From Escherichia phage vB_Eco_OMNI12, in sequence record OL362041.1: DNA of 64,000 nt; one strand, given 5' to 3'. The notes under the pieces are model-generated. The model saw only the letters and a list, made by a program, of their open reading frames with translations, was not told where the DNA came from and did no database searches. Positions 42,428 through 46,792 of this stretch are shown in pieces. Made by a program: the position numbers and the translations under genes. Position 1 is the stretch's first letter; the number at the start of each line of letters is the position of its first letter.

Positions 42428-43256
42428 TTATATATTTCCAATTATAGCCTTCAACACTTTTACGTTCGCCATTTAAACATTTTAAAATATTTCCTTTGCT
42501 AGAAATATTAAAATATTTTGCTGCGTCTGGTATATAATTAAATGTTTTTAAAAGAACACCATCTTTATATGCGCCAAATAAATTAAGAGTATATTTTTCT
42601 CGAAGACGCTGATGTTTCCTTTTCATAACCTCAGGATTTGCATACGCCAACCTCAATGAATTTCTATGTTTTTCTTTTACTTCAGGTTTTTGCATTGCTA
42701 ACTTAGTTAGCCTGGAAATTTTATTTCTAACTTCGTCAGTTTTCATTGCATTTGACAAATTTAATAAAGTTTTATTTCTAACTTCAGGTTTTTGCATTGC
42801 TAACTTAGTTAGTTCTCTATGTCTTTTTCTAAAATCGTCATCCTTCCATATATTTTTCGATAATTTTGACATAGAGCGGTGAAATAATTCCTTTTCACTG
42901 GAATACAATTTAAAAATTTCATCCAATTCATCCGCATTAAATCTATCGGTATTCGAGTTTATCATTCTATGAAAGGCATAACACATTTTACTATTGCTTG
43001 TTTTAGCTAAATAGTAATGAGCTAACGCATGGTCATAATATGACAAATTAACAATATTCCATTTATCTGTTTTATATTCAGGAAATATAGATTTGGGAAG
43101 CACGTGATGTGCTTCCGTTTTTCCTTTTATTTTAGGATTATTATAATTTTTTGTTATCAAATCAACATATGACAATAGTAAATCATTATTTTCTTCAAAT
43201 ATTAAAGCTAATTTATCATTCACAAAATCGCAAGGATAAAATCTATCATAATTCAT
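42417..43256 (-). CDS. MobD-like HNH homing endonuclease (279 aa)
   Basis: HNH motif KTEAHHVLPKSIFPEY...WNIVNLS...H; between nrdD and nrdG as T4 mobD. Confidence 0.75.
   Translation of the reverse strand: MNYDRFYPCDFVNDKLALIFEENNDLLLSYVDLITKNYNNPKIKGKTEAHHVLPKSIFPEYKTDKWNIVNLSYYDHALAHYYLAKTSNSKMCYAFHRMINSNTDRFNADELDEIFKLYSSEKELFHRSMSKLSKNIWKDDDFRKRHRELTKLAMQKPEVRNKTLLNLSNAMKTDEVRNKISRLTKLAMQKPEVKEKHRNSLRLAYANPEVMKRKHQRLREKYTLNLFGAYKDGVLLKTFNYIPDAAKYFNISSKGNILKCLNGERKSVEGYNWKYINEL
42417..43256 (-). mobile_element. Free-standing homing endonuclease gene between nrdD and nrdG
   Basis: HNH ORF; its first 13 codons near-duplicate those of nrdG. Confidence 0.55.
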
Positions 43257-45070
43257 TGGTGTTTAACCCTATGCATGATTTCTTTATTTTTACCGAGATT
43301 AAATCCGCGTTCGTTCGGATTTCCCAAATAACCACATGTTCTTCTTATTGTATTCATCTTTTTAGGATCAGTTTCTCCACAAATAGAACAAACAAATCCG
43401 TTTTCAGTAGGAGTCATTTCATGGGTACTTCCACACGTAAAACATTTATCTACCGGCATGTTAACACCAAAATAATCTAAATGTTGTGCAGCATAATCCC
43501 ATACGGCCTCAAGACCTTTCAAGTTATTTTTCATATCAGGAAGTTCAACATAAGAAATGTGACCACCTGTCGCAATGAAATGATATGGCGCTTCACGAGA
43601 AATCTTTTCAAACGGAGTAATATTTTCTTCTACTGAGACATGGAAACTGTTAGTGTACCAGCCTTTATCGGTAACATCTTTTACGCTTCCATATTTTTCT
43701 GTATCGAGTTTACAGAAGCGATAACAAAGGTTTTCAGCAGGAGTCGAATATAAACTAAAAGCAAATCCGGTTCTTTCAGTCCACTGTTTAAGATGAGCAT
43801 TCATTTTAGTTAAAATTTCTCGTCCAATATCACGACCGACAAGAATATTCAATTCGTGAATACCAATGTATCCTAAAGACACTGAACTTCTACCGTTTTT
43901 AAATAACTCAATTATATCGTCATCAGGTTTAAGACGAACCCCAAATGCACCTTCTTGGTAAAGAATAGGAGCAACAGTAGCTTTAACTCCTTTTAAGGAA
44001 CTAATTCTACACATCAAAGCTTCAAAACATAAATCCATTCGTTCATTGAACAATTCAACAAATTTCTGTTCATTGAACTGTGTTCCAATATAAGAATCTA
44101 ACGCGATGCGAGGAAGATTCAGTGTTACAACACCAAGATTATTACGTCCATCAAGAATTTCATTACCAGTCGAATCTTTCCATACGCCCAAGAAACTACG
44201 GCAACCCATTGGAGAAACAGGAACAGATGAACCAGTGATAGCTTTATTGTTCTTAGCTGAAATAATATCAGGATACATCCTTTTGCTTGCACACTCTAGA
44301 GCAAGCTGCTTAATATCATAGTTCGGATCGTCTTTATAAAGATTAACACCTTCTTCAACGAACATAACAAGCTTAGGGAAAATAGGAGTTATTCCATCAC
44401 GACCAAGACCTTTAATACGATTTTTCAGAATTGCTTTCTGAATCATTCGTTCAGTCCAGTCAGTTCCTGTACCAAATGTAATTGTTACAAAAGGTGTTTG
44501 TCCGTTTGAACTAAAGAGAGTATTTACTTCATATTCATAAGCTTGGAATGCATCGTATACATCTTTTTCTGTTTTAGATTGAGCATAATTCAACACATCA
44601 GCGATTTGCCATTTTTCTGCATCCTCAATATGTTTTGCATAGGTGCGTTTAACATAAGGAGAAAGTACTTTATCGACATTAGCAAATGTAGTTCCGCCAT
44701 ATTGGTGAGAAGCAACCTGTGCAGTAATTTGTGCCATAATTGCAGTAGCAACGCCAATTGATTTAGGAGTTTCAATCTGTGCATTACCAAGCTTAAATCC
44801 GTTCTCAAGCATTCCTTTTAAATCTACTAAACAGCAATTAGTAAATGGAAGAGCAGGGGAATAATCAATATCATGGAAATGAATAATTCCGCTTTCATGC
44901 GCTTTCATAATAAAAGACGGGACCATATTTTTGGCAATGTGTTTAGACACAATACCAGCCATAAGGTCCCGTTGAGTTGGAAAAACACGAGAATCTTTAT
45001 TAGCATTCTCGTTTAAAAGGTCTTTATTAGTTTTATGAATCAATCCTTCAATTTCTTTTTCAATTGTCAT
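43253..45070 (-). CDS. nrdD: Anaerobic ribonucleotide reductase NrdD (glycyl radical enzyme), intronless
   Basis: Continuous 605-aa ORF; C-terminal glycyl radical motif RRTCGYLG; Cys-rich zinc site. Confidence 0.95.
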   Translation of the reverse strand: MTIEKEIEGLIHKTNKDLLNENANKDSRVFPTQRDLMAGIVSKHIAKNMVPSFIMKAHESGIIHFHDIDYSPALPFTNCCLVDLKGMLENGFKLGNAQIETPKSIGVATAIMAQITAQVASHQYGGTTFANVDKVLSPYVKRTYAKHIEDAEKWQIADVLNYAQSKTEKDVYDAFQAYEYEVNTLFSSNGQTPFVTITFGTGTDWTERMIQKAILKNRIKGLGRDGITPIFPKLVMFVEEGVNLYKDDPNYDIKQLALECASKRMYPDIISAKNNKAITGSSVPVSPMGCRSFLGVWKDSTGNEILDGRNNLGVVTLNLPRIALDSYIGTQFNEQKFVELFNERMDLCFEALMCRISSLKGVKATVAPILYQEGAFGVRLKPDDDIIELFKNGRSSVSLGYIGIHELNILVGRDIGREILTKMNAHLKQWTERTGFAFSLYSTPAENLCYRFCKLDTEKYGSVKDVTDKGWYTNSFHVSVEENITPFEKISREAPYHFIATGGHISYVELPDMKNNLKGLEAVWDYAAQHLDYFGVNMPVDKCFTCGSTHEMTPTENGFVCSICGETDPKKMNTIRRTCGYLGNPNERGFNLGKNKEIMHRVKHQ

Positions 45071-45540
45071 TTTAAACTCTTTCTAAGCTGCTTCTTAAAT
45101 GAAGCTATTAACTGTGTTTTGGTGTCAGATTCATTATATTCAAATCCTCTTTGAAGCATCTCGGCCATCATTTCCTCTTTTCCTAAACGAGAAAATTCCT
45201 TTGATTTATCTCCAACAAAGTTAGGGTGAATATTATTTTGGGTGTAATCGGATTTTAAATAAGTAAGTAAATTTTCTAACCATTCAAGATAATCAACACC
45301 TTGTCCCTTTAAGCCAGAACGATTAAATTTATGCTTCATTTGACCTTCTGCGGCATTGCAGAGATTACAAAGCAATCCACGTATCTTTCCTGCTTTTGGT
45401 CCATTTAATTCATGGTCATGATCAAGATGATTAGCTTGAACATCAGGATTTAGTTCTCGTTGGCAAATTAAACATTTACCGTTTTGTGCATCATAAAATT
45501 TCTGTTTTTCTTCTTTATATAATTTGCCAGTCAATAACAT
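45067..45540 (-). CDS. 49: Endonuclease VII (Holliday junction resolvase) gp49
   Basis: 157 aa as T4 gp49; Cys-rich HNH-type zinc motif. Confidence 0.9.
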   Translation of the reverse strand: MLLTGKLYKEEKQKFYDAQNGKCLICQRELNPDVQANHLDHDHELNGPKAGKIRGLLCNLCNAAEGQMKHKFNRSGLKGQGVDYLEWLENLLTYLKSDYTQNNIHPNFVGDKSKEFSRLGKEEMMAEMLQRGFEYNESDTKTQLIASFKKQLRKSLK

Positions 45541-45546
45541 AATAAA

Positions 45547-45571
45547 ACCCTTACCTTAAATAGATAAGGGT
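45547..45571 (-). promoter_or_regulatory. Hairpin sequestering the gene 49 Shine-Dalgarno
   Basis: accctta ... taagggt inverted repeat; TAAGGGT sits about 7 nt upstream of the gene 49 ATG. Confidence 0.5.
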
Positions 45572-45582
45572 ATTTATTATTT

Positions 45583-45759
45583 TTAAGTATTGTAAAACAT
45601 TCGATGCAATCGTTTATACTGTCGAATCATCTTTTTAGTAGGACGAGAATAGGTTCCTACGCAAGTTGTCATATGAGGGTCCGTAGAATGTCCTTTAATA
45701 AAAAGTTTCCAAACCTTACCGCCATTTAACTTTTCAGTATAAACCAATTCGGTTTTCAT
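45583..45759 (-). CDS. Small ORF (about 58 aa) whose C-terminus duplicates the Pin C-terminus
   Basis: Ends ...MIRQYKRLHRMFYNT versus Pin ...KIRQYKRLHQMFYNT; lies between 45-bp direct repeats; possibly a duplication remnant rather than a functional gene. Confidence 0.3.
   Translation of the reverse strand: MKTELVYTEKLNGGKVWKLFIKGHSTDPHMTTCVGTYSRPTKKMIRQYKRLHRMFYNT
45584..45628. repeat. 45-bp direct repeat, copy 1
   Basis: taagtattgtaaaacattcgatgcaatcgtttatactgtcgaatc; about 90 percent identical to copy 2. Confidence 0.6.
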
Positions 45760-45795
45760 TAAAATGTCCTGTCAGAAAAAGAATTTTGAGTTTTT

Positions 45796-46299
45796 TCAAG
45801 TATTGTAAAACATTTGATGCAATCGCTTATATTGCCGAATCTTTTGGTCAGAAAAAGAAATTTGAGTTTCAAGCCATTCAATGTACTCTGCGGCAGCTTG
45901 CATCAGGTTACCTTCATAGCCATCGTTATTTTCTTGCGCAGCTAATTTAGCTAATGCGTATGAAATACGTTCACCTTGAAAAGCGGCTTTAGGCTTCTGA
46001 ACATCTTGGCTAGTTCTCTCTACAACTTCTTCAATTTCACCATTTTCAACGGATTCAGTATTCCACAAACACCAGTATGTAATTGGCTTATCATAGATGT
46101 TAATAATCTTTCCGTCGGAAAGTTCAATTTCAATAATTCCAGTATCAGGTTCTATATCATCTTCACATTCTTTTACAAGTTCACGAACTTTAAAGACAGT
46201 ACCTGCACTAAGTTCCGGCCAGTAATTACATAGCCCTGTATCAACACGATTAATTCTAAACCACTTATCTACTGTAATCATGTCCCATCTCCATATCAA
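45796..46299 (-). CDS. pin: Pin-like protein (protease inhibitor position, 167 aa)
   Basis: Size and position next to gene 49 as T4 pin; track start is TTG. Confidence 0.5.
   Translation of the reverse strand: MIWRWDMITVDKWFRINRVDTGLCNYWPELSAGTVFKVRELVKECEDDIEPDTGIIEIELSDGKIINIYDKPITYWCLWNTESVENGEIEEVVERTSQDVQKPKAAFQGERISYALAKLAAQENNDGYEGNLMQAAAEYIEWLETQISFSDQKIRQYKRLHQMFYNT
45797..45841. repeat. 45-bp direct repeat, copy 2 (3-prime end of pin)
   Basis: caagtattgtaaaacatttgatgcaatcgcttatattgccgaatc. Confidence 0.6.
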
Positions 46300-46403: not shown

Positions 46404-46613
46404 TTAACCCCGAAGCTTATTAAGTTCTTCATAATCAATCCAGGATTCTAATCCTGATGGCAAATCAGATTCAATTTCCCAAAGAAGCTCTTCAATTTTC
46501 TGAAGACGATCTAGTTCTTCGGCTGGAATAGTAACCATTGACGGAGCTCGTGATACATTAATATCGTAAATCATATTTACCCCAGTTTGACCATGCAATC
46601 GCCGTATTTCCAC
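46404..46613 (-). CDS. Hypothetical small protein (69 aa)
   Basis: ORF. Confidence 0.4.
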   Translation of the reverse strand: MEIRRLHGQTGVNMIYDINVSRAPSMVTIPAEELDRLQKIEELLWEIESDLPSGLESWIDYEELNKLRG

Positions 46614-46792
46614 TTAGAAATAGACTTTTCGCCATTAGAATAATAAACTTCGAGTTTAGCACGATTATTTTTAATTTGAATAACCTTGGCTGTCATCAAA
46701 GTTCCATACCCATAATAAACTGCAACTTCATCACCTACATATACCGCGCTTCCGCGATAATCATGAATATAGTCAGTTCCTTCGAGCATCAT
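46577..46792 (-). CDS. Hypothetical small protein (71 aa)
   Basis: ORF. Confidence 0.4.
   Translation of the reverse strand: MMLEGTDYIHDYRGSAVYVGDEVAVYYGYGTLMTAKVIQIKNNRAKLEVYYSNGEKSISKWKYGDCMVKLG

Follow-up and report, generated by a model that had tools for sequence, protein, structure and literature searches.

How the last codons of one gene come to stand a second time, in the same frame, at the end of its neighbour is the question raised by the interval between pin and gene 49 in Escherichia phage vB_Eco_OMNI12 (sequence record OL362041.1), where a hairpin directly before gene 49 adds the question of regulation. The interval was analysed within a stretch of 64,000 nucleotides of this genome, here called the window, and is the pin-gene 49 junction of a Tequatrovirus, on the minus strand. 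Three co-oriented genes meet here, with gaps of 36 and 42 nt: pin (45796-46281), which encodes PinA, the inhibitor of the host Lon protease, in the fused T4-type form of 161 aa counted from its ATG; ORF58 (45583-45759), a 58-aa gene of the DUF7279 or phrog_3272 family; and gene 49 (45067-45540), which encodes the 157-aa recombination endonuclease VII (Pfam Endonuclease_7, E 1.5e-21; Endonuc-dimeris, E 1.5e-33). Many deposited Tequatrovirus genomes share 99.5% identity with the region, and the majority of them label the three genes protease inhibitor, hypothetical protein and endonuclease VII. Further along the minus strand, nrdD (43253-45070) is a single unbroken 605-aa ORF, whereas in T4 the gene is split by a group I intron encoding I-TevII, with mobC just downstream. 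Between nrdC and gene 49.1, two small minus-strand ORFs of 69 and 71 aa (46404-46792) replace T4 49.2 and 49.3; the 71-aa ORF matches DUF7205 (E 4e-11) and the 69-aa ORF has a weak, sub-threshold match to the T7 gp5.9 RecBCD-inhibitor family (20 bits against a cut-off of 24.5). Taken as a whole, the junction is best explained, with a probability of about 0.78, as a real DUF7279 gene set among the scars of recombination and followed by the gene 49 switch of T4.

The repeats and the DUF7279 gene

Two direct repeats occur in the interval, both far above chance. The longer one pairs 45580-45628 with 45793-45841 (49 nt, 44 of them identical, or 90%, at an offset of 213 nt), and its ungapped score of 34 compares with 9.8 +/- 1.2, and a maximum of 15, in 200 dinucleotide-preserving shuffles, which confirms the downstream recurrence of the pin 3' end that had been noticed in the original prediction. 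The shorter motif said to occur twice is found at 45771-45793 and 45847-45869 (GTCAGAAAAAGAA(T/A)TTTGAGTTT; 23 nt, 96% identical, spacing 76 nt). In the order of transcription the junction runs from pin, ending in repeat B, repeat A and the stop codon, through repeat B', the body of ORF58, repeat A' and a second stop codon to the hairpin and gene 49. On this minus strand, repeat A' (45583-45628) consists of the native last 15 codons and stop of the DUF7279 gene, inside the family profile, and repeat A (45796-45841) of the last 15 codons and stop of pin, which we read as a captured copy of the DUF7279 tail. The C-termini, MIRQYKRLHRMFYNT for ORF58 and KIRQYKRLHQMFYNT for Pin, and the 58-aa reading frame itself are as they had first been quoted. 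Repeat B (45847-45869) holds the pin codons ...TQISFSD directly before the captured tail, and B' with its linker (45760-45793) is a non-coding remnant of the ancestral kind of pin 3' end. In the pin frame B' still encodes TQNSFSDRTF and a stop, the TAA of which overlaps the ORF58 ATG (TAATG) as in phages of the OE5505 type; in OE5505 itself pin ends ...TQISFSDRAF with the same TAATG overlap. The B' region also carries the ORF58 Shine-Dalgarno sequence, AGGA at 45770-45767, 7 nt before the ATG. Other small repeats (D3, D4, I1-I3 and I5-I9) were at chance level or part of the gene 49 hairpin, and repeats A and B were judged not to be regulatory, as T4-type and Pu-Krd-type phages are without one or both copies.

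The reading frame that ends in A' belongs to a curated family. ORF58 matches Pfam DUF7279 (PF23945) over the whole domain and above the curated gathering threshold (E 3e-17, 62.7 bits against a cut-off of 24.5; residues 7-56 on profile positions 1-53 of 53) and phrog_3272 over residues 1-58 (E 3.4e-34); because both matches span it, the C-terminal tail is part of the family's own domain. Twelve homologues of ORF58 share 23 invariant columns, and its AlphaFold model (pLDDT 86) shows three beta-strands and then, at residues 42-55, a C-terminal helix, to which the repeated tail corresponds. The gene is annotated in about 180 Tequatrovirus genomes, already as hypothetical in more than 100, and is absent from T4. 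In Dhakavirus WG01 and two IMG/VR loci (L013, L018) a DUF7279 homologue stands directly upstream of gene 49 in genomes without pin at this place, and Dhakavirus-like loci (L011, L012, L014, L016, L022, L027, L028) combine the homologue with a pin remnant of only 57 aa. The family is small: an exhaustive representative search with ORF58 returned only eight matches, five of which were short multi-stretch matches to much longer proteins and were taken to be spurious. ORF58 had no match in NCBIfam, and a Foldseek search of the AlphaFold model found no PDB match below E 0.3. Judged by its family profile, homologues and predicted structure, ORF58 is a real small conserved gene and not a by-product of duplication.

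The position of the same tail in Pin is of another kind. The Inhibitor_I24 profile (PF10465) recognizes the window protein at residues 4-141 (E 7e-47, 159 bits against a cut-off of 27), well within family membership, and phrog_2167 does so at residues 1-146; residues 147-161 lie outside the PinA profiles and match positions 44-58 of phrog_3272. None of the PinA homologues outside Tequatrovirus, found among 44 IMG/VR loci from other genera, carries the tail, and many of them stop after ...FSDRAF, ...FSDKAF, ...FSDEAF or ...FNSRKF. Together, the ends of the profiles and the missing tail in other genera argue that pin acquired the tail from DUF7279 and not the reverse, and the T4-type pin would have gained its last 15 codons from that gene, most simply by a deletion of 137 nt. 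The description of the locus as a duplicated pin 3' end therefore stands for the short motif B' (45771-45793), which is a true duplicated remnant of the end of pin, but for the 45-nt repeat the polarity had been reversed.

It had been proposed that a local tandem duplication of the pin 3' end made the second copy, the 58-aa ORF then being a chimeric or accidental by-product. Two tails that are 90% identical and in the same frame, and the piece of pin that B' really does duplicate, are what such an event would leave. It would leave no account, however, of a curated family whose profile includes the tail, of DUF7279 homologues that adjoin gene 49 in phages without pin, of PinA proteins outside Tequatrovirus that end before the tail, or of the 137 nt between B' and A', which have no similarity to pin, and we regard this origin of an evidently independent, conserved gene as highly improbable.

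Capture of the tail by pin would mean that the laboratory-standard T4 PinA (161 aa) carries a 15-residue C-terminal helix from a neighbouring gene. In Tequatrovirus, a tail-less pin of 148 aa is present in about 130 genomes, and roughly 240 T4-type and 113 window-type genomes keep the tail conserved and in frame. That the captured helix is functional seems quite improbable; if it were, it might alter Lon binding, or let PinA mimic the DUF7279 protein or compete with it for a shared partner, and the pin/DUF7279/gene 49 junction would then consist of selected, recombination-driven, interchangeable alleles and not of neutral scars.

Structural alleles and the history of the junction

At least five structural alleles of the junction exist in Tequatrovirus, as seen when the interval that begins at a fixed point in pin and ends at the gene 49 ATG is compared between the window and T4, OE5505, Pu-Krd-SF2, YwIITB1 and L14. 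The OE5505 type measures 266 nt and has a 148-aa pin ending SDRAF, its TAA overlapping the ORF58 ATG; in the T4 type (128 nt) 137 nt are removed and pin is fused in frame to the last 15 codons of ORF58; in the Pu-Krd type (97 nt) 169 nt are removed between TTTTA(C)AAT microhomologies, so that ORF58 is deleted and pin stays at 148 aa. The window type (342 nt) has the T4-type pin end, then the vestige B', then an intact ORF58, and phage L14 is a window type of 347 nt in which the A run at the A-B' junction is expanded (L054, about 720-762). In YwIITB1 (282 nt) 17 nt of B and a tail of pin type come after the body of ORF58, with the frame shifted; in this phage, Ec_YwIITB1 (L053, about 1016-1290), the 17 nt of the pin end stand before the ORF58 tail and the frameshifted, annotated ORF runs into gene 49. 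The alleles differ in size by 76, 214/137 and 169 nt. Set against T4, as the original prediction had advised, the interval in the window is the longer: T4 is without the duplication and its interval is 214 nt shorter. Among 639 phage records that match the region, 180 carry ORF58 and 113 the window-type A-B' junction, which leaves about 67 genomes of the OE5505 type; an evenly spaced listing gives estimates of roughly 240 T4-type and 60 Pu-Krd-type genomes. Elsewhere, the IMG/VR contig L019 has, in the 800 nt upstream of gene 49, a 180-aa pin homologue flanked on both sides by DUF7279-like ORFs or fragments, an arrangement that suggests another rearrangement of the pin and DUF7279 genes.

The order of recombination events is drawn here from a few representative genomes and not from a phylogeny of all 639. 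Because the OE5505-type arrangement is common to other genera, where pin stop and DUF7279-like start codon overlap (L017 and L012), it is taken as ancestral. The ancestral order would thus be a 148-aa pin ending ...FSDRAF, a TAATG overlap with the DUF7279 gene, the late promoter, the hairpin and gene 49. An in-frame deletion of 137 nt would then have fused pin to the last 15 DUF7279 codons, lengthening it to the 161 aa found in T4. Recombination of such a T4-type pin end with a vestige-plus-DUF7279 module best explains the window allele: at a CTTGAA(A) microhomology the pin end would have met a module of ancestral type, in which an intact DUF7279 gene followed the final ~30 nt of pin. Such an event would have left the DUF7279 tail twice (A/A') and the pin end twice (B/B'), and B' would now give its AGGA ribosome site to an uncoupled ORF58. 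It is plausible that this AGGA of the B' linker would compensate for the lost stop-start coupling with pin.

Two details of the join bear on its course. The A-B' junction is not a clean microhomology join and contains three extra A's, and the B' linker of the window, AGGACA, differs at three of six positions from that of the sampled OE5505-type phages (CGAGCA or CGAGCG). No OE5505-type genome had the window linker, and an exact-pattern scan of IMG/VR for the B'-ORF58 junction returned only a window-type contig; because no donor with exactly this pin end was found, either the donor lineage is unsampled or the linker changed after the event. Conversely, the window allele might be the older one within Tequatrovirus, with recombination between A and A' yielding the T4 type and between B and B' the OE5505 type. 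The spacing of the repeats accounts exactly for the size differences (B/B', 76 nt; A/A', 213 (+1) nt), and direct repeats of 23-49 nt are plausible substrates for deletion. Yet the OE5505-type overlap, being present in L017 and L012 as well, predates Tequatrovirus, the linkers of that type do not match the one in the window, and the duplications of the window allele themselves need a prior event, all of which makes this order distinctly unlikely, although collapse of A and A' may convert window-type into T4-type phages as a secondary process.

Homing endonuclease genes are found nearby in relatives, namely mobC and I-TevII in T4, one gene beside gene 49 in Pu-Krd and a SegE-like gene in the Dhakavirus vB_EcoM-E33, and double-strand-break repair around such genes would be a plausible driver of the mosaicism. 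In E33 (L005, 395-1700) a 357-aa SegE-like GIY-YIG endonuclease gene occupies the slot of gene 49, downstream of the DUF7279 gene; before it stand a TAAATA of its own and a hairpin whose stem differs and is self-complementary (ACCUAUA/UAUAGGU). Mobile cassettes of T4-type phages called PeSL, reportedly described by Arbiol et al. in 2010, are said to consist of an early sigma-70-type promoter next to a stem-loop, the pair recurring on both sides of a shuffled ORF. This model was rejected for the present locus: a pattern scan found no sigma-70-like promoter inside 45541-45845, the stem-loop is single, and the repeats are coding fragments and not promoter cassettes. In our reading the locus illustrates cleanly how the fusion of genes and their re-insertion in T4-like phages can be traced in short repeats.

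The hairpin before gene 49

The inverted repeat that had been seen just ahead of the gene 49 ATG (45540-45538) is confirmed and proves longer than at first described. It spans 45539-45580 on the minus strand, and as RNA it reads AUAAUAAA-U-ACCCUUAUCU-AUUUA-AGGUAAGGGU-UUUAUUAU-G. The core has 10 bp (45571-45562 with 45556-45547), among them one G.U pair, around a 5-nt loop (45561-45557), and an A/U extension of 8 bp (45580-45573 with 45546-45539) reaches into the start codon and pairs the A and the U of the AUG. Structure prediction on an 81-nt context gives -20.4 kcal/mol (z = -3.9), a value that none of 200 shuffles equalled. The gene 49 Shine-Dalgarno sequence, read as UAAGGG at 45548-45553, 7 nt before the AUG, lies in the 3' arm, so that the locus has the stable hairpin, with Shine-Dalgarno and start codon in that arm, that defines the switch class. 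Gene 49 also lies downstream of same-strand genes, as in that class, and RNA reading through from them would be predicted. A late-promoter-like AATAAATA (45571-45578, minus strand) agrees with the T4 late consensus TATAAATA at seven of eight positions, and the 5' arm begins with its last A.

In T4 late promoters, transcription starts about 6 nt downstream of the motif. With this geometry applied to AATAAATA, a late start is expected near 45565, inside the 5' arm. Transcripts reading through from upstream would fold into the interrupted hairpin of 18 bp, which would bury the Shine-Dalgarno sequence and the AU of the AUG, and late transcripts that start inside the 5' arm could not fold and would be translated. 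The hairpin is the regulatory element of T4 gene 49, the translational effect and the transcript starts being those that sequence and geometry would predict here, and the proposal that it hides the gene 49 Shine-Dalgarno as in T4 is supported.

Conservation of the element was surveyed in the 44 IMG/VR loci, which encode gp49 relatives of 49-99% identity and extend to 233-kb Aeromonas phage contigs. Each of the 35 distinct gene 49 upstream regions folds to a hairpin with TAAATA at its start and the Shine-Dalgarno sequence inside its 3' arm, as an equivalent GAGG or GGGG in other genera, and TAAATA is invariant in the 26 regions that were aligned. The stems themselves vary widely (ACCC/GGGU, AGGUUC/GAACCU, ACGUUC/GAACGU, ACUC/GAGU, AGAGUC/GACUCU). 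In the 26-sequence alignment 88.8% of cells are paired, and sliding the partner by 1-3 columns lowers this to 34-52%; compensatory changes occur in six of ten pairs, with 51 doubly changed cells, and 0 of 500 shuffles reach the observed covariation. Rfam returned no family at its gathering score, and two sub-threshold matches of 26.5 and 21.6 bits against 50. The survey adds comparative support for TAAATA and a covarying stem that holds the Shine-Dalgarno sequence before gene 49, from Tequatrovirus to Aeromonas phages of Aeh1 size.

The hairpin might instead be mainly an intrinsic terminator that ends an early pin/ORF58 unit. To a pattern scan it looks like a terminator, with ten pairs, four of them G-C, followed by TTTATTATGT, and several GenBank records annotate it as such; but four G-C pairs among ten in the core would make a weak terminator at best, what is conserved is the TAAATA that adjoins the 5' arm and the Shine-Dalgarno sequence held by the 3' arm, and most other genera have no U tract, their AUG following directly on the 3' arm (e.g., GGUGAACCUAUG). 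As conservation of the U tract is confined to Tequatrovirus and Dhakavirus, termination would be a side function at most, and as the main role it is unlikely, while both roles could coexist in Tequatrovirus. Ribosomes terminating upstream could transiently open the hairpin and so produce translational coupling. The upstream ORF, whichever it is, stops 31-44 nt before the gene 49 ATG in about 38 of the 44 loci, near or overlapping TAAATA, and in the remaining loci further away, up to about 243 nt.

Comparison with known T4 systems

A regulatory hairpin with a late promoter at T4 gene 49 was reportedly described by Barth, Powell, Trupin and Mosig in 1988 (Genetics 120:329). The element in the window agrees with that of T4 in its position, in having the Shine-Dalgarno sequence within the 3' arm and in the AATAAATA that abuts the 5' arm, and its sequence differs only by one extra U between stem and AUG; the upstream neighbour is the DUF7279 gene in the window and pin in T4. 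Hairpins of the same logic precede the T4 genes e, soc, I-TevI, segB and mobE, but these are different genes with different sequences, and no sequence relationship is expected. Sequestration of the ribosome site in an RNA helix is listed in reviews for a group of T4 genes that includes gene 49 (PMC3014915; PMC2988022). As a general principle, RNA made early by read-through covers the ribosome site when it folds, and RNA made late begins inside the 5' arm or beyond it (PMC2988022; PMC3014915). The regulatory hairpin is thus already known and belongs to textbook T4 biology.

Within gene 49, the nested 12-kDa gp49 product of T4 starts at an internal GUG, which is replaced by ATA in the window. 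This codon 53 (45382-45384, minus strand) is GTG only in T4, GTA in four other sampled Tequatrovirus and GTT or GTC in other genera, and the nested product is, on codon identity, probably specific to T4.

For PinA the point of comparison is the T4 protein (UniProt P07068, Pfam Inhibitor_I24), which the full-length, 161-aa window protein resembles in being T4-type. Residues 147-161 of this type lie outside the family core and would derive from the neighbouring DUF7279 gene, in contrast to the 148-aa forms, which are without the tail. Nothing in the locus departs from the known biology of T4-like phages, and the probable foreign origin of the last 15 residues of T4-type PinA is the only new reading offered here, small and modest as it is; it is relevant to the design of constructs for structural or biochemical work on PinA and Lon.
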